NCBI GenBank assembly: GCA_036386775.1
Contig: DASVVA010000016.1
Location: 1 to 28,937, forward strand
Origin: Minisyncoccota bacterium
GTDB lineage: Bacteria; Patescibacteriota; Minisyncoccia; Phycocordibacterales; Phycocordibacteraceae
Length of the DNA stretch: 28,937 bases
Direction: 5' to 3'
How positions within the stretch are numbered: position 1 is the stretch's first letter; every line of letters starts with the position of its first letter. The notes beneath the pieces were generated by a model. It made no database searches. It was not told the origin of the DNA and saw nothing but the letters and a program-made list of their open reading frames with translations. Shown in pieces: positions 4,197 through 26,572 of this stretch. Both the position numbers and the translations under genes were made by a program.

Positions 4197-4202
4197 TATA
4201 CT
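4197..4202 (+). promoter_or_regulatory. -10 box of a probable leaderless transcript
   Basis: TATACT followed by exactly 6 nt then ATG 4209. Confidence 0.6.
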
Positions 4203-4208
4203 TAGGAG

Positions 4209-5390
4209 ATGAAACTTCGCTGGGCCGCGCTAGTGTTCGTTGCTGCCGGCGTCGTGTCGCTTGTTCCCGGTGCGGCTGAAGCAGCGACGCTAGATATCAC
4301 ACTGAAGACTCACTCGAATACGTCTGACGGAACTCTGTTCGTGGGCCTGTTTGATGCTGAGACGAGCGACTTCGTAAAGGGCATTTACCCAAAAAATGGA
4401 AAAGCCCGCTTCGTGGGTCTGGCTGAAGGCAGAACGTACCTACTCTCTGTTACTGGAAATTGGTACGAAGACGTATTCATTTCGATTCCAGTTACCAAGA
4501 ACAAAGTGAACAAGAAAGTCGCGCTCGCTATCAATAAAGATGACGGCACCGACTTCGGAGTCATCCCGTTTCCGTTAAACGCCGTTTCAGGGACACCAGT
4601 GTTCAGGCTTGGCGAGGCGCCCCAGTTTGGTGTAAGCGTAGCTGCACCAAGCGGAACGGTGCGCACCTACCTCATGCGGCACGGCGAACCCAAGCGGTAT
4701 CTGCTCTCCACCACGAGGCATATTCCTGGGAGCAATCTGTATGAATTCAAAGACGTACGGCCTAGTACAGCATCGCTGTCGGGAGTGACACCTGGAGGCG
4801 GATATTACCTTGCATCGTTCTATACGGGTGACGACGGGAAGTTGAAGTTAACCAACACAAGCCGGTACGGCGCATATATTAGAGTAGAGGGCGGCTTTTC
4901 CGCAAAGAATGTTGAGACGCATGTTGCAACCAGTCCTGCATCGCGAAATACCTACGTCAACGAGACGTACGGATTTAGCATGTCCTTCCCGCAGAGCTGG
5001 AAGCACGACGGCAAAGGGTCTGTGTATCCATCGATTACATATTGGGAACCTGGCGATTTTGCGTCGCTTCGGGTGTGGATCATCAGAGACTATCCGGGTT
5101 CTGCAAACACAGCGCTCGACAGCTACGTAAGTTCAAAGCGCACACAGCTCATGAAAGACCTCCGGACATTTAAGGCGAAAGAAGTTAAGGGGATAGTGGT
5201 AAATGGTGCTCCAGGAAGAAAATTGAGCGGTACCTGGATTGACACGGACGGCAGCGAAAGAACGACGGACATTTACGTGCTTTATAACAAAGGGAGGCTG
5301 ATCGAAATAACGGCCACAGGGCTGGTTGCCAACTTTAGTAGCTTCGAAGAAGAGGTTAAGGAAGCTCTGAGAAGTTTCACCTTTATATAA
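4209..5390 (+). CDS. Secreted multidomain protein: signal peptide, beta-sandwich (carboxypeptidase-regulatory/prealbumin-like) region, C-terminal PsbP/Mog1-like domain
   Basis: N-terminal MKLRW, hydrophobic stretch and AEA-A cleavage motif; beta-rich middle; C-terminal YVNETYGFSMSFPQSW is typical of PsbP-like domains. Confidence 0.65.
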   Translation: MKLRWAALVFVAAGVVSLVPGAAEAATLDITLKTHSNTSDGTLFVGLFDAETSDFVKGIYPKNGKARFVGLAEGRTYLLSVTGNWYEDVFISIPVTKNKVNKKVALAINKDDGTDFGVIPFPLNAVSGTPVFRLGEAPQFGVSVAAPSGTVRTYLMRHGEPKRYLLSTTRHIPGSNLYEFKDVRPSTASLSGVTPGGGYYLASFYTGDDGKLKLTNTSRYGAYIRVEGGFSAKNVETHVATSPASRNTYVNETYGFSMSFPQSWKHDGKGSVYPSITYWEPGDFASLRVWIIRDYPGSANTALDSYVSSKRTQLMKDLRTFKAKEVKGIVVNGAPGRKLSGTWIDTDGSERTTDIYVLYNKGRLIEITATGLVANFSSFEEEVKEALRSFTFI

Positions 5391-5393
5391 CTC

Positions 5394-5413
5394 GCCGCCC
5401 CGGGCGGTCTTTT
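5394..5413 (+). terminator. Intrinsic terminator candidate
   Basis: GCCGCC-ccg-GGCGGT followed by CTTTT, right after stop 5390. Confidence 0.5.
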
Positions 5414-5431
5414 CGTTTATGTCCACTGGCC

Positions 5432-5437
5432 TATACT
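5432..5437 (+). promoter_or_regulatory. -10 box of a probable leaderless transcript
   Basis: TATACT, 6 nt, ATG 5444. Confidence 0.6.
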
Positions 5438-5443
5438 GGTCCT

Positions 5444-5887
5444 ATGGAAAGGGCACTTGGTTTCTTCGTAGTTTTTGGCGTCATTCTAATTGGCGCGCTC
5501 GCGCTAGTCGACCGAAAAGCTGCAGCCCCTGAGCCATCAGAGGCCAACAAACCTGCAGTTACAGAGCCTTCCCGCACATTCGCGTGGCGCTTTGAGACAA
5601 AGGAGGCCGAAGGTGAGCTGCCGCCACGCAGCCGGGTGGCGCTCATTACGGGCGGAGAAGTGTACGATGTTGGCGAATACGCCGGGAGCTGTGCAGAGGT
5701 TCCTGTGGACCGACTCCTGCCGGGGGAGGTTGCCGCCGTCTTGTGTTGGTGGGCAGGGAAGGGCGACGAGATCGCTGTCTTCAAAGAGGGAGAGCGTCAT
5801 GTGGTAAAGCTTGGTCTCCAAGAGGAATCCACGGCCGAGTCGGATGGGTTCCGCGGTGACTTCCGCGAGTACTTCACTCTCGACTAA
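5444..5887 (+). CDS. Hypothetical membrane-anchored protein
   Basis: One N-terminal hydrophobic helix (LGFFVVFGVILIGALALV) and a soluble domain with two Cys (SCAEV, LCWWAGKGD); fills the gap before tuf. Confidence 0.75.
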   Translation: MERALGFFVVFGVILIGALALVDRKAAAPEPSEANKPAVTEPSRTFAWRFETKEAEGELPPRSRVALITGGEVYDVGEYAGSCAEVPVDRLLPGEVAAVLCWWAGKGDEIAVFKEGERHVVKLGLQEESTAESDGFRGDFREYFTLD

Positions 5888-5899
5888 AAGCTTGCGGGG

Positions 5900-5928
5900 T
5901 TGACCCTATGTTTTGACCGCGTTAGAGT
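5900..5928 (+). promoter_or_regulatory. Sigma70-type promoter for tuf-rpsJ
   Basis: TTGACC-17 nt-TAGAGT; an 8-bp inverted repeat CGCGTTAG/CTAACGCG (5918-5940) overlaps the -10. Confidence 0.6.
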
Positions 5929-5985
5929 GGGCCTAACGCGAAACGGCGCTCTTTTCATGTTCCCATAGTGCTCGGGAGCTTGGTT

Positions 5986-6018
5986 AAAGGCGCTGCGCGG
6001 GTTACGCATAGCGCCTTT
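5986..6018 (+). promoter_or_regulatory. Stem-loop in the tuf 5' leader
   Basis: AAAGGCGCT-GCG...CGC-AT-AGCGCCTTT. Confidence 0.5.
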
Positions 6019-6087
6019 GATCATTTCAGGGCGCAGGCGATGCACTTTTGTTCTATATCTTTAACTTACTAGTTACTTACTAACACT

Positions 6088-7290
<1,203 letters not shown>

Positions 7291-7310
7291 CCCGCATACC
7301 TTCTTCTCGT

Positions 7311-7670
7311 ATGGCCACCACCAAGAAAGCTCCCGCGAAGAAAGCTGAAGCCGCGCCTGCGGTAGAGGCCAAGCTCCGCATCCGCGTGCGCGCCTACGAG
7401 CACAAGATTCTCGATCTGTCGGTGAAGCAAATCATGGACACGGCGAATCGCTTTGATGCGAAGATCGTCGGGCCTGTACCGCTTCCGACCGAGATCAAGC
7501 GCTGGACTGTGAACCGCTCGACGTTCGTCCACAAAGACGCACGCGAGCAGTTCGAGATGCGCATCCACAAGCGCCTCATCGACATCCTTTCGCCCAACCC
7601 GAAAGTGATCGAGGCCCTCACCAATCTGAACTTGCCCTCGGGTGTGACGATTGATGTGAAGATGGTGTAG
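7311..7670 (+). CDS. rpsJ: 30S ribosomal protein S10 (uS10) with Lys/Ala/Pro-rich N-terminal extension
   Basis: LRIRVRAYEHKILD, GPVPLPT, REQFEMRIHKRLIDI. Confidence 0.99.
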   Translation: MATTKKAPAKKAEAAPAVEAKLRIRVRAYEHKILDLSVKQIMDTANRFDAKIVGPVPLPTEIKRWTVNRSTFVHKDAREQFEMRIHKRLIDILSPNPKVIEALTNLNLPSGVTIDVKMV

Positions 7671-7683
7671 CTAAAAACTCACC

Positions 7684-7719
7684 AAACAAGAACCGCTCAG
7701 AAATGGGCGGTTCTTGTTT
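7684..7719. terminator. Intrinsic terminator after rpsJ
   Basis: AAACAAGAACCGCTCA-gaaa-TGGGCGGTTCTTGTTT: 16-bp stem (one G-U pair), GNRA loop. Confidence 0.8.
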
Positions 7720-7768
7720 TTATCAGCAAATCTGGCATATTCGTCACAGAGCACAGGAGGGCTCGCAT

Positions 7769-8254
7769 ATGCACCTGGGAGTTTTGTTCGCTGCAGCGCA
7801 GCGGGCCGAAAGCATCCTCAACGCGTTCCTGGAGCAGGACTCCGGCATCGCCAACGACCTGATTGCGGAAGGCAAGTTCGGAGGCTATCTTTGCCTCGCC
7901 TGTCCCGAAGGCTACCCGTTCGCGGTTGTGAGCATCGGGCGACCCGATCCCGGCAAGCTCGATCGTTACCTCACCTTTTCCCAGGAGAAGGCCCGTAGGC
8001 TCGCGGCCCATCCGGAACACCGGCTCAGCTTCGAAAGCAGGGATCCGGAGAAGGATCAGTGGGGCGGAGCGGTCCGTGGCGACATGTTCATCGTCAGCTT
8101 TTCGGGGCTCCCCGAGCGTCTCGACGAGGTCCTCTCGGCGCTGATTCTCGTGAGCTGCGATGATGTCGAGTTCCAGGATGCGATGTCGAGGATTGCCGGC
8201 AACCCCTATGTCGAGAAGCTGGGCGAATCCAGACTCGCGGCGTTCCTCGTCTGA
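7769..8254 (+). CDS. Hypothetical protein, possibly GlcG/HbpS-like fold; start reassigned from 7703 to 7769
   Basis: AGGAGG at 7755-7760 lies 8 nt before ATG 7769; the 7703 start lies inside the terminator; EKARRLA...WGGAVR...SFSGLPE..DE resembles the GlcG-like GG..I.GVSG..D pattern. Confidence 0.6.
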   Translation: MHLGVLFAAAQRAESILNAFLEQDSGIANDLIAEGKFGGYLCLACPEGYPFAVVSIGRPDPGKLDRYLTFSQEKARRLAAHPEHRLSFESRDPEKDQWGGAVRGDMFIVSFSGLPERLDEVLSALILVSCDDVEFQDAMSRIAGNPYVEKLGESRLAAFLV

Positions 8255-8264
8255 ACCCCACAAC

Positions 8265-8293
8265 GCCTTGGACCAAAATCCGGGGCCTTTTTA
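8265..8293 (+). terminator. Intrinsic terminator candidate
   Basis: GCCTTGGA-ccaaaa-TCCGGGGC (8 bp, two G-U pairs) then CTTTTTT. Confidence 0.45.
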
Positions 8294-8313
8294 TTATTTA
8301 TTGAGAGCGCGAT

Positions 8314-8342
8314 TTGCATTTCGGAAGCCCTGTCTGTATAGT
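8314..8342 (+). promoter_or_regulatory. Sigma70-type promoter for rplC-rplD-rplW-rplB
   Basis: TTGCAT-17 nt-TATAGT with an AT-rich upstream tract. Confidence 0.65.
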
Positions 8343-8445
8343 GCCCCTAATAACGCTACGTACGGCAGATTCGCTGCTGGACCAATGGCCGCTGAAAGGA
8401 GACCTCTCCTGAAACGCGCCATTGTGCGCGTTTCGCTTTAACTAC

Positions 8446-9063
8446 ATGAAATTCATCCTCGCTAAAAAGGACCGCATGACCCAGCTCTTCGATGAGCAGG
8501 GTCGCGTGTGGGCAGGTACGGTTCTTAAGACTACGCCACTCACTGTCACCCAGGTAAAGACCGCCGACAGCAAGGACGGCTACTCTGCCGTGCAGGTTGG
8601 CTTTGGTGAGCAAAAACTGGAACGCGTTTCGAAGGCGGTGCGCGGTCACCTAAAAGGTAAGGCTTTTAAAATCGTTAAAGAGTTCCGCGTCGAGAACCCT
8701 GCTGAATACGAGGTCGGCAAGGAAATTGGTATTGATACGTTTGCTGTGGGTGATGGCGTCGTTGTTGCGGGCACAGTAAAGGGTCGTGGTTTTGCTGGCG
8801 TCGTGAAGCGCCACGGTTTCCATGGAGGCCGCCGTACACACGGCCAGAAACACTCTGAGCGTGAGCCGGGCTCCATTGGCGGCGGCGGACGTGCTGGCGG
8901 TCGCGTGGCTAAAGGCATGCGCATGGGCGGCCGCATGGGCGGTAATCGGGTTACGGTCGAAAACCTGAAAGTGCTTCACGTTGATGCAGAGAAAGGCGAG
9001 ATCATTATTTCGGGTGCCATCCCTGGCGCTCGCGGCTCACTGGTCGAGGTCGTCTCGATGTAA
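8446..9063 (+). CDS. rplC: 50S ribosomal protein L3 (start at ATG 8446, not 8422)
   Basis: KKDRMTQLF, DGYSAVQVGF, KGRGFAGVVKRHGF, REPGSIG, GAIPG. Confidence 0.98.
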   Translation: MKFILAKKDRMTQLFDEQGRVWAGTVLKTTPLTVTQVKTADSKDGYSAVQVGFGEQKLERVSKAVRGHLKGKAFKIVKEFRVENPAEYEVGKEIGIDTFAVGDGVVVAGTVKGRGFAGVVKRHGFHGGRRTHGQKHSEREPGSIGGGGRAGGRVAKGMRMGGRMGGNRVTVENLKVLHVDAEKGEIIISGAIPGARGSLVEVVSM

Positions 9064-9073
9064 CTAGATTTGT

Positions 9074-9904
9074 ATGGCAACTGAAAAAGAAACAAAGGCT
9101 AAGGGCCCAGCAAAAGCAGCAGCAAAGAAGGCGCCAGCTAAGGCTGCGGCTAAAGCTCCTGCAAAGAAAGAGGCTCCCTCAAAGAAGATAGCTACTCCAA
9201 AGCCGGAGAAGGCAGCAAAGCCGGCGGCAGGGCTTGAAGCTACGGTCTATAGTGCAACTGGCTCGTCAGCTGGAACCATCACGCTTCCTGAGGCGCTCTT
9301 TGGCGCCCAGTGGAACGCTGACCTCGTGCACCAGGTCGTTGTGGGTATGCAGGCTAATGCACGTCCGACAGTTGCAAACACCAAGTTCCGCGGTGAAGTT
9401 CGCGGCGGTGGCAGGAAGCCTTGGAAGCAGAAGGGTACCGGCCGTGCTCGTCACGGCTCACGGCGCTCACCTATCTGGGTTGGTGGCGGTGTCACGCACG
9501 GCCCTCGTGCTGAAAAAGTGTATGCGGTGAAGATCAACCGTAAGATGCGGGCGGCCGCGCTCGCGTCTGTGCTCTCCCGTAAGTGGGCAGATGGTGAAGT
9601 GATCTTCGTAGAGCGCTTTGCTTTCGATGGTCCTAAAACCAAGGATGCAAAGTCAGCACTCGTTGCTATCGCTAAGGGCGCTGGCCAGGAGGCACTCGCA
9701 ACGCGTCGCACCAATGCCGCCCTAATCGCACTCCCCAAGAAGGACGCAGCTACTGAGAAGTCGTTCCGTAATCTTACGGGCATCGTCTCGGGGGAAGTGC
9801 GCAACCTCAATCCGGTCGATCTCATGACGAAGAAATACCTCGTGATCGCAGAGCCTGCAGAGGCTTTCACGATCCTTGGTAGCCGCCTAACGAAGAAGGC
9901 GTAA
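9074..9904 (+). CDS. rplD: 50S ribosomal protein L4 with ~53-aa Ala/Lys/Pro N-terminal tail
   Basis: RGEVRGGGRKPWKQKGTGRARHGSRRSPIWVGGG, KINRKMR. Confidence 0.98.
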   Translation: MATEKETKAKGPAKAAAKKAPAKAAAKAPAKKEAPSKKIATPKPEKAAKPAAGLEATVYSATGSSAGTITLPEALFGAQWNADLVHQVVVGMQANARPTVANTKFRGEVRGGGRKPWKQKGTGRARHGSRRSPIWVGGGVTHGPRAEKVYAVKINRKMRAAALASVLSRKWADGEVIFVERFAFDGPKTKDAKSALVAIAKGAGQEALATRRTNAALIALPKKDAATEKSFRNLTGIVSGEVRNLNPVDLMTKKYLVIAEPAEAFTILGSRLTKKA

Positions 9905-9914
9905 CGAGAATTTT

Positions 9915-10259
9915 ATGGCACTCTTTTCATCAACTCCCAAGAACGGCTCAAAGGCTCAGACGCCTAAGGTAGACGACGGTCGCTTGGCACACACGCTCAA
10001 GCGCCCATGGTTCTCCGAGAAGGCTTTCATTGGCACCGAGAACGGCGTCTACGTCTTTGAGGTCCCTGCTTCGGCAACGAAGCCTGAGATCAAGGCTGCA
10101 GTCGAGAAGTTCTACAGCGTTACGCCCCGACAGATTCGCGTCGTGAACCTGCCCGCAAAGAAGGTGTCTTTGCGTACTCGCCGCGGCACCGGCTCGCGCG
10201 CGCGTCGCCATAAGGCATACGTGTACCTAAAGAAAGGCGATACGATTTCGATTGCCTAA
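9915..10259 (+). CDS. rplW: 50S ribosomal protein L23
   Basis: PWFSEKA, YVFEV, ATKPEIKAAVEKFY, KAYVYLKKG. Confidence 0.97.
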   Translation: MALFSSTPKNGSKAQTPKVDDGRLAHTLKRPWFSEKAFIGTENGVYVFEVPASATKPEIKAAVEKFYSVTPRQIRVVNLPAKKVSLRTRRGTGSRARRHKAYVYLKKGDTISIA

Positions 10260-10269
10260 TACCTGAAGT

Positions 10270-11112
10270 ATGAAAACCTACAAGCCAACCAGTCCAAGCC
10301 GCCGCGGCATGACCACGCTTCCGTACAAGAAGCTTCTGTCGGGCGATCGCCCCATGAAGTCGCTTCTCAAAACGAAGAAGCGCCAGGCGGGCCGTAATAA
10401 TGCAGGCCGCATCACGACCCGTCACCAGGGCGGTGGTCATAAGCGCCGCTATCGCGACATTGATTTCACGTACAACAAGATGGATATCCCGGCAAAGATC
10501 GAGACCATTGAGTACGATCCGTACCGCACCGGCTTCATCGCCCGCGCCCTCTACGCAGACGGTGAACGCCGCTACGTGCTTGCTCCCAAGGATGTGAAAG
10601 TCGGCGACACTTTCCTCGTCGGTGAGACCGCACCACTTAAGCCCGGTAACCGCGTACCGCTCGGCCGTATCCCGTCCGGCACCTTCGTATACAATGTTGA
10701 GCTTAAGCGCGGCGCAGGCGCACGCCTTGCGCGTTCTGCCGGCAACTATGCCGAAGTCGTCGCGCACGATGCAGGCTACGCGCAGCTCAAGCTTCCTTCA
10801 ACCGAAGTTCGCAAAGTCTCCGATCTCTGCTTCGCATCCATTGGTGCCGTCGGTAACGAGAACAGCCGCCTTGTGAATATCGGTAAAGCAGGCCGCTCCC
10901 GTTGGATGGGCAAGCGCCCGACGGTTCGTGGTACTGCCATGAACCCAGTCGACCATCCGCATGGGGGTGGTGAAGGACGCCAAGGCCGCGGTCTACGCCG
11001 GGCCAAGAGTATGTGGGGCAAACCTACCGGCAAGGGTCAGAAGACTCGCACGCCGAAGAAGTACTCAAACGTCTTCATCGTCTCGCGCCGCAAGGTCGGC
11101 AAGAAGCGCTAG
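10270..11112 (+). CDS. rplB: 50S ribosomal protein L2
   Basis: GRNNAGRIT, IEYDPYR, RGTAMNPVDHPHGGGEG. Confidence 0.99.
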   Translation: MKTYKPTSPSRRGMTTLPYKKLLSGDRPMKSLLKTKKRQAGRNNAGRITTRHQGGGHKRRYRDIDFTYNKMDIPAKIETIEYDPYRTGFIARALYADGERRYVLAPKDVKVGDTFLVGETAPLKPGNRVPLGRIPSGTFVYNVELKRGAGARLARSAGNYAEVVAHDAGYAQLKLPSTEVRKVSDLCFASIGAVGNENSRLVNIGKAGRSRWMGKRPTVRGTAMNPVDHPHGGGEGRQGRGLRRAKSMWGKPTGKGQKTRTPKKYSNVFIVSRRKVGKKR

Positions 11113-11123
11113 TTAAGTGACTT

Positions 11124-11157
11124 AAAGAAAAACCGCTCTCGCCAGCGGTTTTTCTTT
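11124..11157. terminator. Bidirectional intrinsic terminator after rplB
   Basis: AAAGAAAAACCGCT-ctcgcc-AGCGGTTTTTCTTT: perfect 14-bp stem. Confidence 0.85.
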
Positions 11158-11163
11158 AGTGTC

Positions 11164-11172
11164 TGCTACAAT
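11164..11172 (+). promoter_or_regulatory. Extended -10 of a probable leaderless transcript
   Basis: TGC-TACAAT, 6 nt, ATG 11179. Confidence 0.65.
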
Positions 11173-11178
11173 CCCGGA

Positions 11179-11799
11179 ATGATTAAGGCAGCTCTATTTG
11201 ATGTTGACGGCGTCATTCTCGTTGGCAGAGAATGCCTCTTTAGTGAGCGGCTTGCAAAACATCAAGATATTCCCGGCGCGCATGTGTCAGAGTTTTTCGC
11301 TAAGGATTTTAAAAAGTGTTCTTTCGGCAAAGCCGATTTGAAAGAGGTGCTCACTCCGTACTTGTCTAAATGGAAGTGGAAAGGGAGTGTCGACGATCTG
11401 TGTAGTTTCTGGTTTGAAAACGAAGGAATTATAGATGCGGAGCTGCTGGCAATTGTGACCAAGTTGCGCGGAAGCGGTATTAAGTGCTACGTCGCAACAC
11501 GACAAGAGAAGTACCGACTGAAGTATCTCGTTGATTCTCTAGGCCTAAAAAACCACTTCGATGGAGTCTTTTCTACGTGTGACGTCGGCTTTGATAAAGA
11601 CACCTTCGAATTCTACGAGAACATATTTCATCAAACAGGCCTAGCTCCAGATGAGATTCTGTTTTTTGACGATAAAGAGGTAAACGTAAAGACCGCGCGT
11701 AGTCTGGGTATAAGGGCCTGTTTTTACCAAGGAATCGAGGACTTAAAAGTTCAGGCTGAACCCATTCTGTCAGAAGTTACGGCCGATACTTCGGATTAA
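11179..11799 (+). CDS. HAD-superfamily hydrolase (subfamily IA)
   Basis: Motif I FDVDGV; motif II YVAT; lysine motif GFDK; motif IV FFDDKEVNV. Confidence 0.9.
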   Translation: MIKAALFDVDGVILVGRECLFSERLAKHQDIPGAHVSEFFAKDFKKCSFGKADLKEVLTPYLSKWKWKGSVDDLCSFWFENEGIIDAELLAIVTKLRGSGIKCYVATRQEKYRLKYLVDSLGLKNHFDGVFSTCDVGFDKDTFEFYENIFHQTGLAPDEILFFDDKEVNVKTARSLGIRACFYQGIEDLKVQAEPILSEVTADTSD

Positions 11800-12589
11800 G
11801 GATGCTGCTTAGGTCTGAAAGGGGGATGGGTGCCTCGATCGTGCCGTAGGCATACGGGCCCACCTGGTATGGAGGGAAGATGAGGCGGAGCGTCGTGCCA
11901 TCTATGGCGAAGTTGTTAAATGAGTCGCCCATGGGCTGAGTACCGGAATTAATGTACTCGGCATCTATCTGATCGGGTGTTGTTTCCGCACGCTTTGCCA
12001 TAATGGCAGGCAGTTCAGCGCGTGCTCTGGCGGACAGCCGCTCAAGGTAGGAAGTGCCGGGAGCAAATAGCTCGTCGAGGTGGATATTCTCGCCGGTAGC
12101 GCGGTCAAATGTAAACGTGCGGTAGTAGGCATTAGGGTGAGCGCCTAGGGTGTTTTCGTAGATGATGTAGACGTACGAAATTGTTTTAGGGCTCTCGTAA
12201 AGGGAGTAATCGATGTCGAGAGCGTATTTTTGTCCGCCGGCTATGCTTGCGAGCTCGGGCATTTGTTCCTCGGCACGTTCCTCAAAGCCGCCCATGGCGT
12301 TCTCGACAAAGGACTTCATAAGCGCGACGGCCCCAGCGTCTGCTTCGGCGCCTGCACTTTGGGCGAGGGGCGTGACGCTTGGATAGGTAGCCTCGGCGTC
12401 GTGGTAACGCCCCGAATCAGTGAGTACGATCGGGGGAGTCGTTGTGGCTGTCGGGGTTGTGGTGGCAACAGTGCCCCCTGGGGCAAGCGCACGGGGGGTC
12501 GGATCAATGAAAAGGCGCCATACAAGGATCGCAAGGAAGACGATGAGAAGGGCAACAACGGCCCAGACGGCATGGTGCTTATTGTTCAT
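11777..12589 (-). CDS. Membrane-anchored DUF3298/DUF4163 (RsiV/PdaC-like) protein
   Basis: N-terminal TM helix, Thr/Pro linker (TTTPTATTTPP), GAHPNAYYRTFTFD, FPPYQVGPYAYG. Confidence 0.8.
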   Translation of the reverse strand: MNNKHHAVWAVVALLIVFLAILVWRLFIDPTPRALAPGGTVATTTPTATTTPPIVLTDSGRYHDAEATYPSVTPLAQSAGAEADAGAVALMKSFVENAMGGFEERAEEQMPELASIAGGQKYALDIDYSLYESPKTISYVYIIYENTLGAHPNAYYRTFTFDRATGENIHLDELFAPGTSYLERLSARARAELPAIMAKRAETTPDQIDAEYINSGTQPMGDSFNNFAIDGTTLRLIFPPYQVGPYAYGTIEAPIPLSDLSSILNPKYRP

Positions 12590-12596
12590 CTTACTA

Positions 12597-12602
12597 AGTA
12601 TA
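12597..12602 (-). promoter_or_regulatory. -10 box of a probable leaderless transcript (minus strand)
   Basis: Minus-strand TATACT, 7 nt, ATG at 12589. Confidence 0.6.
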
Positions 12603-12652
12603 GCGCTTCGCCGCCCTCGGCCACTCTAAGAGCTCTGGAATAAGCCTTAAGT

Positions 12653-12681
12653 TTGACACTACTACGCATTTCCTATACATT
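12653..12681 (+). promoter_or_regulatory. Sigma70-type promoter for rpsS to rplE
   Basis: TTGACA-17 nt-TACATT. Confidence 0.75.
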
Positions 12682-12705
12682 AGCCCTATCTCGCGCAAGG
12701 CTAAT

Positions 12706-12729
12706 CCGAGCGTCCGCGAGGACGCTCGG
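12706..12729 (+). promoter_or_regulatory. GNRA-capped hairpin in the rpsS leader
   Basis: CCGAGCGTCC-gcga-GGACGCTCGG: perfect 10-bp stem. Confidence 0.6.
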
Positions 12730-12757
12730 TCGCTTTAGTTGGCGGGTCATTTTTCTC

Positions 12758-13105
12758 ATGTCTCGATCGCTTAAGAAAGGTCCGTACGTGGACCAGAAGC
12801 TCCTCAAGAAGGTAGCCGACCAAAAGCCCTCTACTGCGGGTGTTATTCGCACATGGGCTCGCGCTAGTCAGATTGCCCCCGAATTCGTGGGCTTCACATT
12901 TGGCGTTCACAATGGCAAGCAGCACATCGAAGTCCTTGTTACCGAGGATATGGTAGGGCACCGCCTAGGAGAATTCTCAGCAACGAAGAAATTCCTTCGT
13001 CACGGAGGAAAGATGCAGAAGGAACTTGAGCAGAAGCGCAAGGACGCAGAAATTGCTGCTGCTAAGGCTGCTAAGAGCGCGCCCGCGGCGGCTAAGAAGA
13101 AATAG
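12758..13105 (+). CDS. rpsS: 30S ribosomal protein S19 (start at 12758), with Ala/Lys C-terminal tail
   Basis: [33 protein letters not shown]. Confidence 0.98.
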
Positions 13106-16489: not shown

Positions 16490-16518
16490 TTGACAGCGTA
16501 AATCCTTACTGATACATT
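16490..16518 (+). promoter_or_regulatory. Sigma70-type promoter for rpsN to secY
   Basis: TTGACA-17 nt-TACATT, with the same hexamers as the rpsS promoter. Confidence 0.75.
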
Positions 16519-16551
16519 ACTTGCACGCTCCGTCGGGGCTATTTTTTTCGT

Positions 16552-17756: not shown

Positions 17757-17764
17757 TACTACAT

Positions 17765-18115: not shown

Positions 18116-18134
18116 ATTACTTCTTTAAAACTTT

Positions 18135-18728: not shown

Positions 18729-18748
18729 TCGCACATAATCCTTTTCGT

Positions 18749-20462: not shown

Positions 20463-20477
20463 CGAACTGCTTTAGTT

Positions 20478-20527
20478 CCTCCCAAGAAGAACGGCCGCCC
20501 AAATGGGCGGCCGTTCTTCTTGGGAGG
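20478..20527. terminator. Very long terminator-like palindrome after secY
   Basis: CCTCCCAAGAAGAACGGCCGCCC-aaat-GGGCGGCCGTTCTTCTTGGGAGG: perfect 23-bp stem. Confidence 0.8.
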
Positions 20528-20528
20528 G

Positions 20529-20534
20529 TATACT
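20529..20534 (+). promoter_or_regulatory. -10 box of a probable leaderless transcript
   Basis: TATACT, 6 nt, ATG 20541. Confidence 0.6.
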
Positions 20535-20540
20535 TTTTTA

Positions 20541-21134
20541 ATGGAGCTCAACCTTGCGTTTGGAGTAGCCGCCAGCTTAACTCTCATCGCTGGCTTTTAC
20601 CCCTACATCCGGGACATATTTAGGCGGCAGACAAAGCCTCACATCTATACATGGCTCATCTGGTCGATTACACAGGGCACGGCTCTTCTTGCGCTTGTCT
20701 ACGGCAATGGGGGTCTGTTTGCTGGTGTAGGCATAGCATCCGGCGCTTTTCTCACCTTCGTTGTGTTCTTGCTATCTTTCAAGTTTGGCACCAAGAACAT
20801 TACGGTTATTGATACGGTTACGCTGGTCGGTGCTCTTGCGGCTGTTGTTGTTTGGTGGCAACTCGATAGTCCGCTCGTCGCCGTACTCATGGTGGCCTTT
20901 ATTGATGGAATCGGCTATGTGCCGACGTACAGGAAATCGTGGAGTGAGCCAAGGACAGAGACTTTAAGTTTCTGGCTCCTTTTCACTGCTGGAAATCTTT
21001 TCGCGCTGCTTGCAGTGGCAGAGTACAACCTGCTCACAACATCATATCTAGTGACCGTAGTCACTGCCTCAGTACTGCTCATCATCCTTTGTATATACAG
21101 GCGCGGCGTCGTTCCGGACGCTGCTAGTCTTTAG
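20541..21134 (+). CDS. Integral membrane protein with two PQ-loop/SWEET-like repeats (start at 20541)
   Basis: About 7 hydrophobic helices; internal duplication PYIRDIFRRQTKPHIYTWLIW / PTYRKSWSEPRTETLSFWLLF. Confidence 0.7.
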   Translation: MELNLAFGVAASLTLIAGFYPYIRDIFRRQTKPHIYTWLIWSITQGTALLALVYGNGGLFAGVGIASGAFLTFVVFLLSFKFGTKNITVIDTVTLVGALAAVVVWWQLDSPLVAVLMVAFIDGIGYVPTYRKSWSEPRTETLSFWLLFTAGNLFALLAVAEYNLLTTSYLVTVVTASVLLIILCIYRRGVVPDAASL

Positions 21135-21687
21135 CTAGCCAAGACTGGTACGAAGTTTTGACTTTTTCAGCAACATTATCGAGCGAGGTGTTTGATGTAT
21201 CGGTAGTGAGGTCGAAGGCGGACAGATCAAGCGTGTCGACTCCATAGAGTGTCATGTAGCGCTTTCGCTCGCTCTCCCTGCGCGAGACGATACTCCGGAG
21301 TATCTCGTCCACGGAGTTGCCGCTCTCGCCCACACGACCCTCTTTCTGTATATGATTAAAGATTCGCTCGGCCGCCATTTCAGGGTCAAGTGCAAGAAAG
21401 ACCTTAAATGAAGAGGGAATCCAGTGGAAAGCCAAGCGCGAGTCGACGACTAGGCGGTCCTGTTCACCGAGCTTTTTAAGTCGGTCGTCAACAGCAAAGT
21501 CGATGCTAGGCTCTTGCTCCGCCTGTCGGTTCGCCTCTTCGAGGGAGAGGCCGCGCTCATCAGCAACAGCACGAAAGAGATCACCTGACGAAAAATGCTC
21601 GTATCCGAGCTCTGCGGCAATGCGTTTAGCTGTGCTCGACTTGCCGCTGCCGAGTTCACCAGCAATTGTTATGATGCTTTTTTTCAT
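21124..21687 (-). CDS. cmk: Cytidylate kinase, short archaeal-type
   Basis: ITIAGELGSGKSSTAK, SSGDLFR, VVDSRL, R..SERKRY..LYG, DLTTDTS. Confidence 0.8.
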   Translation of the reverse strand: MKKSIITIAGELGSGKSSTAKRIAAELGYEHFSSGDLFRAVADERGLSLEEANRQAEQEPSIDFAVDDRLKKLGEQDRLVVDSRLAFHWIPSSFKVFLALDPEMAAERIFNHIQKEGRVGESGNSVDEILRSIVSRRESERKRYMTLYGVDTLDLSAFDLTTDTSNTSLDNVAEKVKTSYQSWLAKD

Positions 21688-21742
21688 GCAGAGTGCGCCT
21701 CGCGCGCGTAGCTGCTAGTATTGACCCATCATAGCCATATAC

Positions 21743-22333
21743 ATGCATACATCAAGCCCCGACACGATTCTTATTATCGGCCGCCCAGGATCAGGTAAGG
21801 GCACGCAAGCACGACTTCTTTCTGAGAAGCTCGGTTGGATGCGTGCCTCCTCGGGAGATCGCATTAAGGCCATCCGTGACGGTAACGAGCCTTTCTCAGC
21901 GCGCGTGCGAGAGGTATACGACAAGGGAAGACTGCTTCCCAACTGGTTTGCCGACTATCTCCTTGAAGAGGCACTTTTGAAGCTCCAGCCACACGTGGGA
22001 ATCATATGTGAGGGATTTGGCCGAACGAGGAGCCAGGCTGAGCACTTAACCGAGATCATAGACTGGCTTGGCCGGGACCTTATGGTCGTCAATCTTGAAG
22101 TTCCTGAAGAAGAAGTCGCGCGACGAATGCATTCCCGCTCTGTTACCGAGAACCGGCCAGACAGCAATACAGAGGAGAAAATCAATGCTCGTCTCGCGCA
22201 GTTCAACGAATGCACGGCACCCGCTATCGAGTATTTCAGAAGTGAAGGGGTGGTCGTGGATATTGACGGCACGCCAATGCCCGATCAAATAGCGGAAGCG
22301 ATTGCCGGGGCGGTGCGCCCTAACGCGTCATGA
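21743..22333 (+). CDS. adk: Adenylate kinase, short-LID type
   Basis: GRPGSGKGTQA, SSGD, EGFGRT, RPD, ARL; canonical position upstream of map. Confidence 0.9.
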   Translation: MHTSSPDTILIIGRPGSGKGTQARLLSEKLGWMRASSGDRIKAIRDGNEPFSARVREVYDKGRLLPNWFADYLLEEALLKLQPHVGIICEGFGRTRSQAEHLTEIIDWLGRDLMVVNLEVPEEEVARRMHSRSVTENRPDSNTEEKINARLAQFNECTAPAIEYFRSEGVVVDIDGTPMPDQIAEAIAGAVRPNAS

Positions 22334-23112
22334 TCGTACAAAGCGACCAGGAGCGTGCAGGAATAATTGAAGCCGGAAGGCGCCTGGGCGCAGTGCTTGG
22401 TGCACTTGAACAGGAAGTTCGTCCGGGTATCACGACCGGATACCTTGATGAGGTCGCAGAGCGCCTTATCCGTGAAAAGGGAGATGAGCCTGCCTTTAAG
22501 GGATACACGCCCGAGGGTGCGCGCTACCCATTTCCTGCAGCGCTCTGTATTTCAGTGAACGACGAGATCGTCCACGGCATACCGGGAGACCGTATGCTAA
22601 AAGAAGGAGATATAGTGTCGCTCGATCTGGGCCTCATTCATGACGGGCTGTTCGCAGACTCAGCGGTGACAGTGCCTGTAGGGACAACAGACAAGACCTC
22701 CTACGCACTCATGAACGCCACACGCGTGTCCCTTGAGCGTGGTATAGAGGCGGCGCGCCCAGGAAAGCGCATCGGGGATATTTCATACGCAACGGGGCAG
22801 GCGCTTAATGGTACAGGCTTTGCAGTTGTGAAAGTGCTCGGCGGGCACGGTGTGGGGCGGAGCGTTCACGAAGACCCCTACATCGCTAACGACGGGCACC
22901 CGGGCACCGGTATCGAGATAGTGCCCGGAATGGTGCTTGCGCTTGAGCCCATTGCCAACGCAGGTAAAGCAAGTGTGCTTTTGGATAATGATGGTTATAC
23001 GTACCGCACCCGGGACGGTTCGCGCAGCGCACATTTCGAGCACACCATTCTCATCGAGGAGAAGCAGACGTTGGTAGTTACCCGCAGGCCCGGGGAGCAG
23101 GTAGTTCATTAG
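22330..23112 (+). CDS. map: Methionine aminopeptidase type I
   Basis: CISVNDEIVHGIP, SLDLG, DSA, GHGVG..VHEDP, LEP, SAHFEHT. Confidence 0.99.
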   Translation: MIVQSDQERAGIIEAGRRLGAVLGALEQEVRPGITTGYLDEVAERLIREKGDEPAFKGYTPEGARYPFPAALCISVNDEIVHGIPGDRMLKEGDIVSLDLGLIHDGLFADSAVTVPVGTTDKTSYALMNATRVSLERGIEAARPGKRIGDISYATGQALNGTGFAVVKVLGGHGVGRSVHEDPYIANDGHPGTGIEIVPGMVLALEPIANAGKASVLLDNDGYTYRTRDGSRSAHFEHTILIEEKQTLVVTRRPGEQVVH

Positions 23113-23173
23113 CTCTTCAGCAACAAAGCTTGATACTGCTGAGTATTACCAGCACGGTAATTCGAATTAACCT

Positions 23174-23413
23174 ATGGCAACTATCGTAAACACTCCGGGC
23201 GGCGGCAACGACAACAGCGGACCCGGCTGGGCAGTCGCAGTTATCGTTCTCCTCGTTGTCCTCATCGGCGCGTTCCTTCTCTGGGGTCGCGGCGGTGGCG
23301 ACACAGTCAACGTGGATGTACCAGCACCAAATGTGAATATTCCTACACCTAACGTAGATGTTCCTACTCCTGACGTGAGTGGTGGTGCAGGCGGAGGCGC
23401 TAGCGCGCAATAA
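23174..23413 (+). CDS. Small single-pass membrane protein with Pro/Val heptad repeats
   Basis: TM helix WAVAVIVLLVVLIGAFLLWG followed by VDVPAPNVNIPTPNVDVPTPDV and a Gly/Ala tail. Confidence 0.75.
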   Translation: MATIVNTPGGGNDNSGPGWAVAVIVLLVVLIGAFLLWGRGGGDTVNVDVPAPNVNIPTPNVDVPTPDVSGGAGGGASAQ

Positions 23414-23423
23414 ACCGCTCGTC

Positions 23424-23463
23424 CAAAAGAAAGAAGGCCGCTTCCGCGGCCTTCTTTCTTTTG
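23424..23463. terminator. Long bidirectional terminator-like hairpin
   Basis: CAAAAGAAAGAAGGCCGC-ttcc-GCGGCCTTCTTTCTTTTG: perfect 18-bp stem. Confidence 0.85.
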
Positions 23464-23470
23464 ATATACT
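23462..23470 (+). promoter_or_regulatory. Extended -10 promoter for ndk
   Basis: TGA-TATACT abutting the hairpin. Confidence 0.55.
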
Positions 23471-23511
23471 CGTATCTATATAAGCGCCCTCGGCGATTTT
23501 TCTTTATCTTC

Positions 23512-24120
23512 ATGCCAATTCCTCACCCCAAAACAGAACGGTCTTTTGTCATCATCAAGCCCGACGGTGTACAGCGCTCACTCATCGGTGAGATCCTCAG
23601 TCGTTTCGAGCGCACAGGCCTCAAGCTAGCTGCGCTTAAAATGGCAGTTCTTGATTCTGACCGCATCTGGAAGCACTACGATAAGGACGACGAATGGTTC
23701 GAGAGGAAGGGTAAGGCCATTGCAGAGGACCGTGCGGCGGCGGGCCTGTCTGCGGAAAAAGAGCCAATCGAATACGGCAAAGACATCATCCGTGCGCTCG
23801 ATCGGTATATGACGAGCGGCCCGGTAGTTATGATGGTGTGGGAAGGGAATCAGGCGGTTTCAGTCGTTACGAAGCTCGTTGGCGACACTGCCCCAGCCTC
23901 GTCTGATGTGGGTACTATTCGTGGAGATCTCACCATAGATTCGTACAACCTGTCCGCTGTTGACGACCGAGCCGTACGCAATCTCATCCACTGCTCTGAT
24001 ACTCCCGAGAACGCCCAAAAAGAGATTGAACTCTGGTTCACGCCCGAAGAGCTTATTCAGTACCGTCTTCTTAACGAAGCGATACTCTACGATGTGAACC
24101 TTGACGGTATTCTGGAATAA
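23512..24120 (+). CDS. ndk: Nucleoside diphosphate kinase with internal insertion (start at 23512)
   Basis: ERSFVIIKPDGVQRSLIGEI, YMTSGPVV, GTIRGD, RNLIHCSD, EIELWF. Confidence 0.95.
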   Translation: MPIPHPKTERSFVIIKPDGVQRSLIGEILSRFERTGLKLAALKMAVLDSDRIWKHYDKDDEWFERKGKAIAEDRAAAGLSAEKEPIEYGKDIIRALDRYMTSGPVVMMVWEGNQAVSVVTKLVGDTAPASSDVGTIRGDLTIDSYNLSAVDDRAVRNLIHCSDTPENAQKEIELWFTPEELIQYRLLNEAILYDVNLDGILE

Positions 24121-24148
24121 CGTATAGCACGTTATACAGACCGGGTTT

Positions 24149-24177
24149 TTGCAGCAAAAAGGAGTACTCGTTATACT
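24149..24177 (+). promoter_or_regulatory. Sigma70-type promoter of the ncRNA
   Basis: TTGCAG-17 nt-TATACT; predicted start site near 24184, the first base of the closing stem. Confidence 0.7.
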
Positions 24178-24183
24178 GTCCTC

Positions 24184-24312
24184 AGAGCCGCTGATTCGAA
24201 AGTCAACTTGCGCTTTTTCAGGGAGCTTTACATCCAGGCCAGGCGAGCTTGCTCTACCCTAGCCGTGCGAGCACCCACGTGGCACAGGAAGTTGCCACCC
24301 GGCGGCGGCTCT
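24184..24312 (+). ncRNA. ssrS: Probable 6S RNA, unusually short (~130 nt)
   Basis: Rod-like fold: closing stem AGAGCCGCUG/CGGCGGCUCU; central bubble; CAACUU/AAGUUG; GGGAGC/GCACCC helix resembling Firmicutes-type 6S motifs as I recall them; apical GGC/GCC, AGG/CCU and GAG-CUUG-CUC; own promoter and terminator. Confidence 0.7.
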
Positions 24313-24315
24313 AGT

Positions 24316-24345
24316 AAGAAACCGGCATGTATGTGCCGGTTTCTT
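24316..24345. terminator. Intrinsic terminator of the ncRNA
   Basis: AAGAAACCGGCA-tgtatg-TGCCGGTTTCTT: perfect 12-bp stem. Confidence 0.8.
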
Positions 24346-24379
24346 GCGTTCTATTCACCAAAAAGAGCGAAGGCGTGCA

Positions 24380-24388
24380 TGCTACTCT
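24380..24388 (+). promoter_or_regulatory. Extended -10 of a probable leaderless transcript
   Basis: TGC-TACTCT, 6 nt, ATG 24395. Confidence 0.5.
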
Positions 24389-24394
24389 AAATTT

Positions 24395-24748
24395 ATGCGT
24401 CTCGCCTGGCTCTTCGCCGCACTCGTTCTTGCCATTCTGCTTGCGGGCGTGCACCTCTACGCGCTCCCGCATTTCTGGTATTGGTATTTTCCTTGGCTAG
24501 ACCTGCCAGTACATCTTTTGGGAGGTGCCTTCATGGCAACTGCTGTTATCGGTGTGCTGGGCCGCTTTAGGCCGCTCGTGTTCCTGGTCGTTGTTACCGC
24601 CGGGGCTGTTGGATGGGAAGTTTTTGAGCTCGTCGTTAATGTCGACAGGGAAATGAACTTCGTTTTTGATACCTCGATGGACCTTCTCATGGACACCCTC
24701 GGCATTATCCTTAGCTACGCAACTGCGCGACTTACTATATGGCGATGA
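24395..24748 (+). CDS. Small membrane protein, DUF2238/VanZ-like (start at 24395)
   Basis: WLDLPVHLLGG...WEVFE...DTSMDLLMDTLG pattern of His/acidic residues in TM helices. Confidence 0.65.
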   Translation: MRLAWLFAALVLAILLAGVHLYALPHFWYWYFPWLDLPVHLLGGAFMATAVIGVLGRFRPLVFLVVVTAGAVGWEVFELVVNVDREMNFVFDTSMDLLMDTLGIILSYATARLTIWR

Positions 24749-26121
24749 AACTCACTTTTCACGGGGGCGCAGAGACTGTTACTGGTTCTAACTTCCTCGT
24801 AGAAGGATCTAAAGGGGGGCTGCTTGTTGATTGCGGCGTTGAACAGGGCGAACACTATTGTCAGGGCTGTATGTATGACCCTTTTCCGTATGACGTAACT
24901 TCAATCGACGCGCTCATCATCACCCATGGTCACCTAGATCACATTGGCCGCGCGCCTAAGCTCATCCGCGAAGGGTTTAAAGGAACCGTATACTGCACCG
25001 CGCCTACGCGCGATATTATGGCGCTTATCCTGCTTGATTCAGCGCGCATACTTGGGCAGGAGGCGCGCTCACAGGGTAGAGAGCCGATGTACGACGACCG
25101 CGATGTCGAGGCGCTTATGAATCGGGTCAAGACGATCGAGTACGGGCAGGAGTGGGAGGCTGCGCCCGGTCTCTCTTGCGTGTTGCGACAGACGGGTCAT
25201 ATCTTGGGGTCGGCAAGTGTTCGTATCAAAGACGAGGAAGGTGTGGGGCTCGCTCTTACGGGCGACATAGGCAACTCACCGTCGCCTTATCTGCCCGATC
25301 CCGAGCCTATACAAGACGCTGACGTACTAGTAATGGAGAGCGTGTACGGTGACCGGGAGAACCCTCAGGAAGGCAGAGTAGAAATGCTGCGAGATGTTCT
25401 TAAGGCAGCGATTTCGCGCGGCGGCCCAATTCTAATCCCTGCTTTTTCTATAGAGCGCACACAGCTCATGCTCTACGAGATCAGCAATTTTATGGAGACG
25501 GGGGAGATACCCAAGATCCCGGTCTTCCTTGACTCACCGCTTGCCATTAAGGTCACCGACGTCTATTCCAAATGGGGAAGCAAATACTTCAAACCAGAGG
25601 TAGACGATGAGCTTAAGCGCGAACACGACATTTTTCGTTTTCCATTCCTGACACAGACCCCTGGGCGCGAAGACTCGGAAGCTATCACCGAGACCCGTGG
25701 CTCCAAAATCATCATCGCGGGCGCGGGCATGTCTCACGGAGGCCGTATTGCTCGCTGGGAGGAGCGCTATTTGCCTGATCCGACAACAACTCTTATGATC
25801 GTCGGCTACCAGGCCCCAGGTAGTCCAGGTCGCCTACTTCAGGATGGCGCACGGACCATACGCATTAACAGTCGACAGGTCCCCGTTCGTGCCAAAGTGG
25901 GGACATACTTAGGCTGGTCTGCGCATGCTGACCGCAATGGCCTACTCGCCTTTGCCGAAAAGTCGCTGCCGCGGACGAAGACTATATTCGCTGCCCTCGG
26001 CGAACCAGCAAGCGCTCGCTTCCTGGCACAACGGATTCACGACTTCTTGGGCGTACGTGCCATTGTTCCGACGGAGGGGGAGGTGTGGGAAATTACGAAG
26101 GAGGGCGCTCAGCGTGTATAA
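24739..26121 (+). CDS. Metallo-beta-lactamase/beta-CASP family nuclease (YSH1-like, RNA-metabolising)
   Basis: FHGGAETVTGSNFL, VDCG, THGHLDHIG, GHILGS, TGDIG, MESVYG, PAFSIERTQ, GMSHGGRI, VGYQAPGSPG, SAHAD. Confidence 0.92.
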   Translation: MAMKLTFHGGAETVTGSNFLVEGSKGGLLVDCGVEQGEHYCQGCMYDPFPYDVTSIDALIITHGHLDHIGRAPKLIREGFKGTVYCTAPTRDIMALILLDSARILGQEARSQGREPMYDDRDVEALMNRVKTIEYGQEWEAAPGLSCVLRQTGHILGSASVRIKDEEGVGLALTGDIGNSPSPYLPDPEPIQDADVLVMESVYGDRENPQEGRVEMLRDVLKAAISRGGPILIPAFSIERTQLMLYEISNFMETGEIPKIPVFLDSPLAIKVTDVYSKWGSKYFKPEVDDELKREHDIFRFPFLTQTPGREDSEAITETRGSKIIIAGAGMSHGGRIARWEERYLPDPTTTLMIVGYQAPGSPGRLLQDGARTIRINSRQVPVRAKVGTYLGWSAHADRNGLLAFAEKSLPRTKTIFAALGEPASARFLAQRIHDFLGVRAIVPTEGEVWEITKEGAQRV

Positions 26122-26146
26122 CTTCTGGCGCCTGGATACCTAAAGC

Positions 26147-26152
26147 TATACT
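26147..26152 (+). promoter_or_regulatory. -10 box of a probable leaderless transcript
   Basis: TATACT, 6 nt, ATG 26159. Confidence 0.6.
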
Positions 26153-26158
26153 TAGACC

Positions 26159-26572
26159 ATGCAGCCTGTCTCTGATTTTTTTGCGTACTGCGTCGCTGAC
26201 AGCTACGTCGGCGAAAGCGTGCTGCTCATGGCCCTCCTTATTGTGGTTACGTGCGCTATTGGTTCCGTCCTGCTTCACGTTCTTGCGCGCCTAGCAAAGG
26301 AACGATTGACCTATAAAACCGGACTAGCAGCGTGTGTGGGAACGGGAATAGCAGTTCTGATTGCAGGCGTTGTTACCCTAATCACGGATTTTTGCTTTGC
26401 TCTTGCAGAGGACCTGCTCCTCGCTTTTGTTGTACTCGTGGCTCTGGTCGCCAGCATCGGCTTTCTGCGTCGGCTCAGTCGCATGGCGCTCCCGAAAGCA
26501 GCACTTCTTGCGGTTGTGACGCTGGTCTTAAGTTATGTTGCAGCTGTCCTAATCCTCTCATCGCTTCAATAG
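26159..26572 (+). CDS. Hypothetical 4-TM membrane protein
   Basis: Four hydrophobic segments; fills the gap; leaderless-type promoter signal. Confidence 0.65.
   Translation: MQPVSDFFAYCVADSYVGESVLLMALLIVVTCAIGSVLLHVLARLAKERLTYKTGLAACVGTGIAVLIAGVVTLITDFCFALAEDLLLAFVVLVALVASIGFLRRLSRMALPKAALLAVVTLVLSYVAAVLILSSLQ

Follow-up and report, generated by a model that had tools for sequence, protein, structure and literature searches.

In the metagenome-assembled genome (MAG) of an uncultured Minisyncoccota bacterium from soil, about a quarter of the genes carry an extended -10 promoter element directly in front of the start codon, a layout that very probably yields mRNAs with no, or almost no, 5' leader. 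The layout was analysed starting from a stretch of 28,937 nucleotides (contig DASVVA010000016.1 of assembly GCA_036386775.1, contig C16 of the MAG; hereafter the window). A sequence-only reading of the window had quoted eight such sites, and all eight spacings were found as it gave them: TATACT with 6 nt before the ATG at 4209, 5444, 20541 and 26159, TATACT with 7 nt on the minus strand at 12589, TGCTACAAT and TGCTACTCT with 6 nt, and TAGTAT with 7 nt at 27893 (Table 1). Seven of these sites score 7.7-12.9 bits in the matrix described below, and the site at 27893 scores -0.8 bits. The MAG comprises 463 kb in 51 contigs and is 85.6% complete, with 54% G+C. Its best SecY identity to relatives is 75%, and the nearest loci belong to Patescibacteria/Parcubacteria, in genomes labelled Kaiserbacteria or Paceibacteria.

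The distance between box and start codon is far from random. Genes were predicted with our own open reading frame (ORF) and dicodon caller (486 genes, covering 89% of the genome), the first ATG was assigned as the start codon of each gene, and sites were scored with a 9-nt weight matrix at a cut-off of at least 6 bits. Among 451 first ATGs, 113 were positive at spacers of 6-9 nt, against 1.3 expected; this genome-wide positional scan, proposed as a check by the sequence-only reading, came out in its favour. The positives are distributed over spacers 6, 7, 8 and 9 as 62, 21, 12 and 18 sites, respectively. With the looser pattern TANNNT, 85, 35, 17 and 29 of 449 genes have a match at the same four spacers, compared with about three per spacer for internal in-frame ATGs. 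Of the 158 TATACT copies in the genome, ATG follows 34 with a spacer of 6 nt and 10 with a spacer of 7 nt, compared with about two for each other spacer. Within the window, TATACTN6ATG occurs four times, while 100 dinucleotide shuffles gave 0.06 +/- 0.28 and none reached four. The window holds nine TATACT copies in total: five at the leaderless distance, two in intergenic promoters of leadered units (23465 and 24172) and two within genes. Leaderless translation strongly prefers AUG, and allowing alternative starts added just four GTG and three further ATG sites to the 113.

Alignment of the sites revealed the consensus TGnTAtACT of an extended -10 element, in which T-12, A-11 and T-7 are invariant and the TG at -15/-14 is represented by G in 87% and T in 59% of the sequences. 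No column in the -35 region exceeds 40%, that is, no -35 element is conserved. In the extended -10 sigma-70 promoters of E. coli and Gram-positive bacteria, a TG one base upstream of the hexamer offsets a missing -35. The sites described here share the TG at -15/-14 upstream of TAnnnT and the weak or absent -35 with those promoters; they differ in that the element is placed so that +1 coincides with the start codon. The canonical +1 is the seventh base after the -10 hexamer, so a spacer of 6 nt makes the A of ATG the canonical start. At spacer-6 sites this A is preceded by C in 47% and by T in 32% of cases (C or T in 79%), and pyrimidine-purine is the usual start-site pair.

We propose that the boxes act as sigma-70-type extended -10 elements without a conserved -35, from which RNA polymerase would start on the A of ATG itself when the spacer is 6 nt and 1-3 nt before it when the spacer is 7-9 nt. 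The resulting mRNAs would carry no, or almost no, 5' leader, and their 5'-terminal AUG would be bound directly by ribosomes and initiator tRNA, by analogy with Actinobacteria and Deinococcus. In both the genome and the genus, the layout is the usual one for roughly a quarter of all genes and a third of the genes that come first in a transcription unit, whatever their function. The other genes are operon-internal or have G-poor leaders that lack Shine-Dalgarno (SD) motifs and in many cases contain a small hairpin with a U-tract. As a whole, this explanation is very likely correct, with the start sites and the mode of ribosome loading predicted from the DNA.

The TATACT-type box is a promoter and not a ribosome-binding site. 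The motif precedes 100 of 315 first-in-unit genes and 20 of 136 internal genes, and when the gap to the upstream gene is 10 nt or less, even the loose TANNNT test is positive in just 11 of 89 genes, compared with about half at gaps of 10-100 nt. Furthermore, of the strong copies in non-coding DNA that have a same-strand start no more than 200 nt away, 87 lie at 6-9 nt from it and 36 at 10-200 nt. For instance, the ndk promoter uses the same motif at a distance, directly after a hairpin (23425-23462) and ahead of an ATG at 23512 that matches the NDK N-terminus, which identifies it as a promoter element and not as a ribosome site at fixed distance. Stable hairpins end 1-15 nt before the boxes of the genes at 4209, 11179 and 20541, leaving no space for a leader or a separate -35 element; the T-tract of the secY terminator even doubles as the -10-to-ATG spacer of the gene at 20541. 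Genome-wide, our own strict terminator finder detected few sites upstream of leaderless genes (4 of 57 against 6 of 118), too few for a useful comparison, and the hairpin evidence therefore comes from folding those of the window. The N-termini of known families also fit the predicted ATGs, as in TIM 1:1, HAD 2:1, CN_hydrolase 4:1, the DnaG zinc ribbon 3:3 and Pyr_redox_2 3:2, and in the HAD product encoded at 11179, profile position 1 aligns to residue 2.

The opposite assignment would make TATACT a non-SD ribosome-binding motif within a 5' leader, read by a diverged 16S tail, as in 'group B' of GeneMarkS-2. Its distance of 6-9 nt is indeed that of SD sites in other bacteria, and the 16S 3' tails of relatives are altered to ...GGAACAUAUCC..., but a ribosome site should also serve operon-internal genes, before which the motif is rare, and the pattern of the same motif before first and internal genes of leadered mRNAs, which characterises group B, was not seen here. 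The TGn extension and the invariant -10 positions also speak against it, as do the identical motifs found 10-200 nt upstream of leadered genes and directly after terminator hairpins. We regard this assignment as extremely unlikely. Pairing of TATACT with the altered 16S tail was considered and rejected: the tails of the relatives vary (CATATCC, CATTTCC, TTCTTCC, TCATTC and TAATTC), and none is complementary to UAUACU.

A second alternative accepts real promoters and assigns many of the transcripts short leaders, from a few to about 10 nt, so that they would be short-leadered and not strictly leaderless. This is unlikely, yet considerably less so than a ribosome site. About 27% of the positives have 8- or 9-nt spacers, twelve more strong boxes lie 10-20 nt from a start, and in the window the starts of adk, of the gene at 1821 and of infC lie 21, 12 and 17 nt past a box, respectively. 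On the other hand, the modal spacer is exactly the canonical -10-to-+1 distance of 6 nt (62 of 113), a pyrimidine precedes the A at +1, and leaders of up to 3 nt act as leaderless in the systems studied. Several points weigh against the promoter-at-ATG explanation. The 8-9-nt spacers may give leaders of 1-3 nt; the site at 27893, one of the eight quoted, has no convincing box; and the simple first-ATG caller errs in places, such as rplC and rpmI. The 16S rRNA gene of the MAG itself was not assembled, so loss of the anti-SD sequence is demonstrated for its relatives only. In addition, the one public run that contains this sequence is a soil-metagenome DNA run, with no RNA run listed, and the start sites are therefore predicted from promoter geometry.

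The picture of a cell without SD signals, drawn by the sequence-only reading, was borne out. GGAG and AGGA were found upstream of 1% and 0%, respectively, of 104 operon-internal starts, whereas intragenic ATGs, used as controls, have them in 6.6% and 6.9% of cases. The operon-internal starts are also poor in G between -10 and -2, and the base at -1 is T in 63% of them, C in 29% and a purine in just 8%. The commonest triplet at -3 to -1 of operon-internal starts genome-wide is CGT. The CCTCC anti-SD core is absent in all ten 16S genes of relatives (seven same-genus and three same-order genomes), which read GGAACATATCC where E. coli reads GGATCACCTCC (Table 1). Among the ribosomal proteins (r-proteins), uL1 (PF00687) and bS21 (PF01165) gave no match in the MAG, which is provisional given its 85.6% completeness, while a 372-aa open frame on contig C24 with three S1 matches is consistent with a short bS1.

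A Parcubacteria subgroup lacking both the anti-SD and uL1 has been published (Tsurumaki, Saito, Tomita and Kanai 2022, RNA 28:1041, PMC9297842). The present lineage shares features with it: CCTCC is missing from the 16S genes of the relatives, and neither uL1 nor bS21 was detected in the MAG. That paper covers rRNA and r-protein losses, does not contain the word 'leaderless' and leaves the mode of translation start open; the promoter-at-ATG layout provides part of the answer to this question.

The layout is widely shared among relatives. TGNTANNNTN6ATG exceeds its reversed control several-fold in every one of the 18 same-genus genomes (mostly 5-10x, with extremes of about 3x and >20x), and an excess is also present in most of 12 other families of the same order. 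Across the phylum, a sample of 120 genomes gave ratios to the control from roughly 1 up to more than 10. An equivalent peak, at spacers 6-7, is seen in the r-protein loci of 80 relatives, which form our syntenic comparison set. In one complete same-genus genome (G017; 993,452 bp), 48 of 250 TATACT copies are at spacer 6, and among reciprocal-best pairs the G017 partner is leaderless for 37 of 66 leaderless genes of the MAG versus 17 of 187 other genes (odds ratio (OR) 12.8, p 5e-14). Most of the 17 listed orthologues of the gene at 24395 retain a (TGn)TAnnnT box 6-9 nt before the ATG, at 31-53% protein identity and usually just past a terminator; this gene and the DUF3298 gene (12589) are conserved in the genus. 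The predicted leaderless state is thus a conserved property of each gene, inherited with the orthologue. The spacing that the sequence-only reading took to predict leaderless mRNAs stands as a genome-wide, lineage-wide and orthologue-conserved feature, the mRNAs themselves being predicted.

The same reading had gone further and proposed a two-tier system, in which a minimal -10 box plus ATG would be a plug-and-play module found exclusively or preferentially in accessory or acquired genes, while -35/-10 promoters with leaders would serve the core genes. The window alone does suggest such a split. All seven of its convincing sites precede non-ribosomal genes located at joints of the r-protein supercluster; of the five testable genes, three (HAD 11179, inserted between rplB and rpsS, and those at 20541 and 26159) have no homologue in any of the 80 syntenic loci; and the r-protein blocks carry -35/-10-like promoters with leaders. 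The DUF3298 gene has a homologue at the same locus in five of the eight nearest relatives. Genome-wide, however, the proposal did not hold. Outside the window, 20 of the longest leaderless-type genes were scanned against Pfam, and most proved to have core housekeeping functions: DnaG primase, HisRS (hisS), TyrRS (tyrS), DnaX, ParB, Ddl, a thioredoxin-reductase-like protein (trxB-like), the transketolase N-terminal subunit, a class-I release factor, TIM (tpiA), YceG/MltG and RmuC, with a PIF1 helicase, a FAD oxidase and others among the remaining matches.

Enrichment among variable genes, which the sequence-only reading had named as a check, was likewise not observed. With G017 as the single reference genome and a tblastn match counted as a homologue, no match was obtained for 40 of the 113 leaderless-type genes (35%) and 116 of the 338 others (34%; OR 1.05, p 0.91). 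Restricting the test to first-in-unit or longer genes gave OR values of 0.85-1.15 (0.85-0.96 for first-in-unit alone). Moreover, the accessory ORFs at 7703 and 23174 have no box, and the core genes adk and ndk, whose leaders in this genome are short or 34 nt long, are of leaderless type in many relatives. That the module is specific to accessory or acquired genes, or enriched in them, is very unlikely. The window shows an apparent accessory/core split because its core genes are mostly operon-internal r-protein genes; the actual split is between the first gene of a transcription unit and internal or leadered genes. One member of the leaderless-type set, the class-I release factor at L085:3933-4802 (289 aa), matches PCRF from profile position 97 of 194 onwards, suggesting that its N-terminal domain is shortened or that translation begins at a more upstream start.

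Taken together, this is a known leaderless layout in a Parcubacteria lineage without anti-SD; it is no new mechanism and is not special to accessory genes. The closest parallel is 'group C' of GeneMarkS-2 (Lomsadze et al. 2018, PMC6028130), whose description of leaderless transcription names it as frequent in Actinobacteria (Mycobacterium tuberculosis, Streptomyces) and Deinococcus-Thermus (Deinococcus deserti); Patescibacteria and Parcubacteria are not among the lineages named in that description. As described for group C, a Pribnow-type box lies 6-8 nt before the starts of first genes and is absent before internal ones, about 25-50% of operons are predicted leaderless, and ATG starts predominate. 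In the MAG, the box likewise peaks at spacer 6, is much commoner before first-in-unit than before internal genes and is combined with an AUG start. Unlike in the group C description, where the remaining genes use SD sites, SD motifs are depleted here and the relatives' 16S genes lack the anti-SD, and the box is mostly extended (TGn) with no conserved -35. In the literature searched, no paper treats leaderless mRNAs in Patescibacteria, the candidate phyla radiation, Parcubacteria or Saccharibacteria.

The sequence-only reading had also assigned -35/-10 promoters with leaders to the core translation blocks. A leadered r-protein class does exist, represented by the sites at 12653 and 16490, but as a class such promoters are not above chance. 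The window contains 11 promoter-like sites versus 7.7 +/- 2.4 in shuffles, and genome-wide TTGAC-N16-18-TANNNT occurs 29 times versus 22 in the reversed control; only the individual conserved sites at 12653 and 16490 are persuasive. At the first of these, the longest rpsS ORF opens with the TTG at 12653, where the TTGACA -35 box begins; in the ORF read from there the S19 domain starts at residue 38, and the rpsS start is the ATG at 12758. At the second, the rpsN leader contains a small hairpin and a U-tract, and the -10 box and the hairpin (with compensatory changes) are conserved in same-genus loci. Weaker -35/-10 matches precede tuf and rplC. An Rfam scan of the window returned zero matches and hence identified neither a known riboswitch nor a known r-protein leader.

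The leaders of rpsN, rpsS and ndk, and probably that of fusA, have in common a small GC hairpin with a U-tract downstream of it, 5-15 nt ahead of the ATG (Table 1). The rpsN and ndk hairpins vary by compensatory substitutions in same-genus loci, with matching sites in L001, L003 and L005-L008. These hairpins may be attenuators or S1/standby sites.

Several starts in the window deserve separate mention. For the site at 27893, the 7-nt spacing quoted as a possibility is present and the start is probably genuine, but the motif score is negative. The true start of this DUF805 gene is probably ATG 27893 or 27884, since DUF805 profile positions 5-105 align to residues 16-119 of the protein. Most of the longer 298-aa ORF at 27425-28321 (+) is an antisense shadow of infC, and relatives match its antisense part only. 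The infC gene itself (minus strand, 27200-27769) contains IF3_N and IF3_C domains and has an apparent TTG start 17 nt past a TGGTATCGT box. In the neighbouring rpmI ORF (27004-27327, minus strand, 107 aa), the L35 domain covers residues 45-94 only, and about 127 nt are shared with the end of infC; its real start is probably a downstream ATG near 27195-27201.

The window begins with a murein ligase gene, followed by fusA, the two small genes at 4209 and 5444, tuf and rpsJ. After a 0.8-kb stretch without assignment come rplC, rplD, rplW and rplB, then the HAD hydrolase gene (11179, +), the DUF3298 gene (12589, minus strand) and the block from rpsS to rplE. The next block, from rpsN to rplO, leads to secY, hyp197 (20541), cmk (minus strand), adk and map. 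A 79-aa ORF, ndk, a possible non-coding RNA unit, hyp117 (24395) and a beta-CASP RNase gene follow; hyp117 heads the unit that contains the RNase (24739-26121). The Yip1-like gene (26159), rplT/rpmI/infC (minus strand), the DUF805 gene and a peptidoglycan-binding protein gene complete the window. Between rplB and rpsS (11113-12652), the HAD gene (+) and the convergent DUF3298 gene break up the S10-type r-protein cluster, and the r-protein block downstream has its own promoter. The unassigned interval between rpsJ and rplC (7671-8445, 775 bp) harbours two overlapping ORFs without a Pfam match, 7703-8254 (+, 183 aa) and 7697-8263 (-, 188 aa); they are followed by a terminator-like hairpin and then by a promoter-like site (Table 1).

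Table 1. Leaderless-type sites, leadered promoters, hairpins and 16S 3' ends (N6 and N7, spacers of 6 and 7 nt between box and ATG).
Feature	Coordinates	Strand	Details
fusA leader, small GC hairpin and U-tract (probable)	~1940-1992		
fusA terminator, 19-bp hairpin	4154-4195	+	stops 1 nt short of -10 box; -37.5 kcal/mol, z -8.1
TATACT (4197-4202), N6, ATG 4209	4197-4211	+	393-aa PsbP-like protein (4209-5390), Pfam PsbP_2; 12.9 bits
Terminator-like hairpin upstream of 5444 gene	5394-5408		
TATACT, N6, ATG 5444	5432-5446	+	147-aa protein (5444-5887), no Pfam match; 7.7 bits
tuf, weaker -35/-10 match	5900-5928		
Terminator-like hairpin after 7703/7697 ORFs	8265-8286		
rplC, weaker -35/-10 match	8313-8342		TTTGCA-18-TATAGT
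rplB terminator hairpin	11119-11163	+	directly abuts extended -10 box; -22.8 kcal/mol, z -6.5
Extended -10 TGCTACAAT, N6, ATG 11179	11164-11181	+	HAD hydrolase (11179-11799); 12.1 bits
TATACT (12602-12597), N7, ATG 12589	12587-12602	-	DUF3298 protein (11777-12589); 12.9 bits
TTGACA-17-TACATT promoter of rpsS-rplV-rpsC... block	12653-12681	+	rpsS ATG 12758, leader about 70 nt; consensus match
rpsS leader, small GC hairpin and U-tract	12730-12757		
TTGACA-17-(TG)TACATT promoter of rpsN-rpsH-rplF... block	16490-16518	+	rpsN ATG 16552, leader about 27 nt; consensus match
rpsN leader, small GC hairpin and U-tract	16519-16551		
secY terminator, 23-bp perfect hairpin	20478-20527	+	1 nt before -10 box; -52.6 kcal/mol, z -11.2
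TATACT, N6, ATG 20541	20529-20543	+	197-aa protein (20541-21134), no Pfam match; 11.1 bits
ndk promoter, extended -10 TGATATACT	23462-23470	+	41 nt before ATG 23512; leader about 34 nt
ndk leader, small GC hairpin and U-tract	23480-23511		
Terminator upstream of 24395 gene	24314-24347		
Extended -10 TGCTACTCT, N6, ATG 24395	24380-24397	+	117-aa protein (24395-24748), no Pfam match; 9.6 bits
TATACT, N6, ATG 26159	26147-26161	+	137-aa Yip1-like membrane protein (26159-26572); 11.1 bits
TAGTAT, N7, ATG 27893, weak candidate	27880-27895	+	142-aa DUF805 protein (27893-28321); -0.8 bits
16S 3' ends of relatives, L101-L110 (G003-G006, G008, G012, G015, G026, G028, G029)			...GTCGTGGAACATATCCAATTGG; variants GGAACATTTCC, GGATCATATCC, GGAATTCTTCC, GGAATCATTC, GGATTAATTC; E. 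coli GGATCACCTCCTTA

Gene finders tuned to SD signals would misplace starts in such genomes, as exemplified here by 12653 (rpsS) and 27425 (the infC shadow). Beyond annotation, we tentatively suggest that loss of the anti-SD and spread of the promoter-at-ATG layout might be two sides of one wholly SD-independent system, a possibility that we hold to be rather doubtful at present. In such a system, unit-first genes would be leaderless, leadered or coupled genes would use the hairpin, the U-tract and the -1 pyrimidine, and a bare box plus ATG would ease gene gain. If a bare extended -10 box beside an ATG suffices for expression, new insertions would need no other signal, and gene gain at operon joints would be eased, although leaderless starts are not enriched among variable genes. 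The promoter-at-ATG layout offers a concrete, testable answer to how Parcubacteria without an anti-SD choose their start codons.

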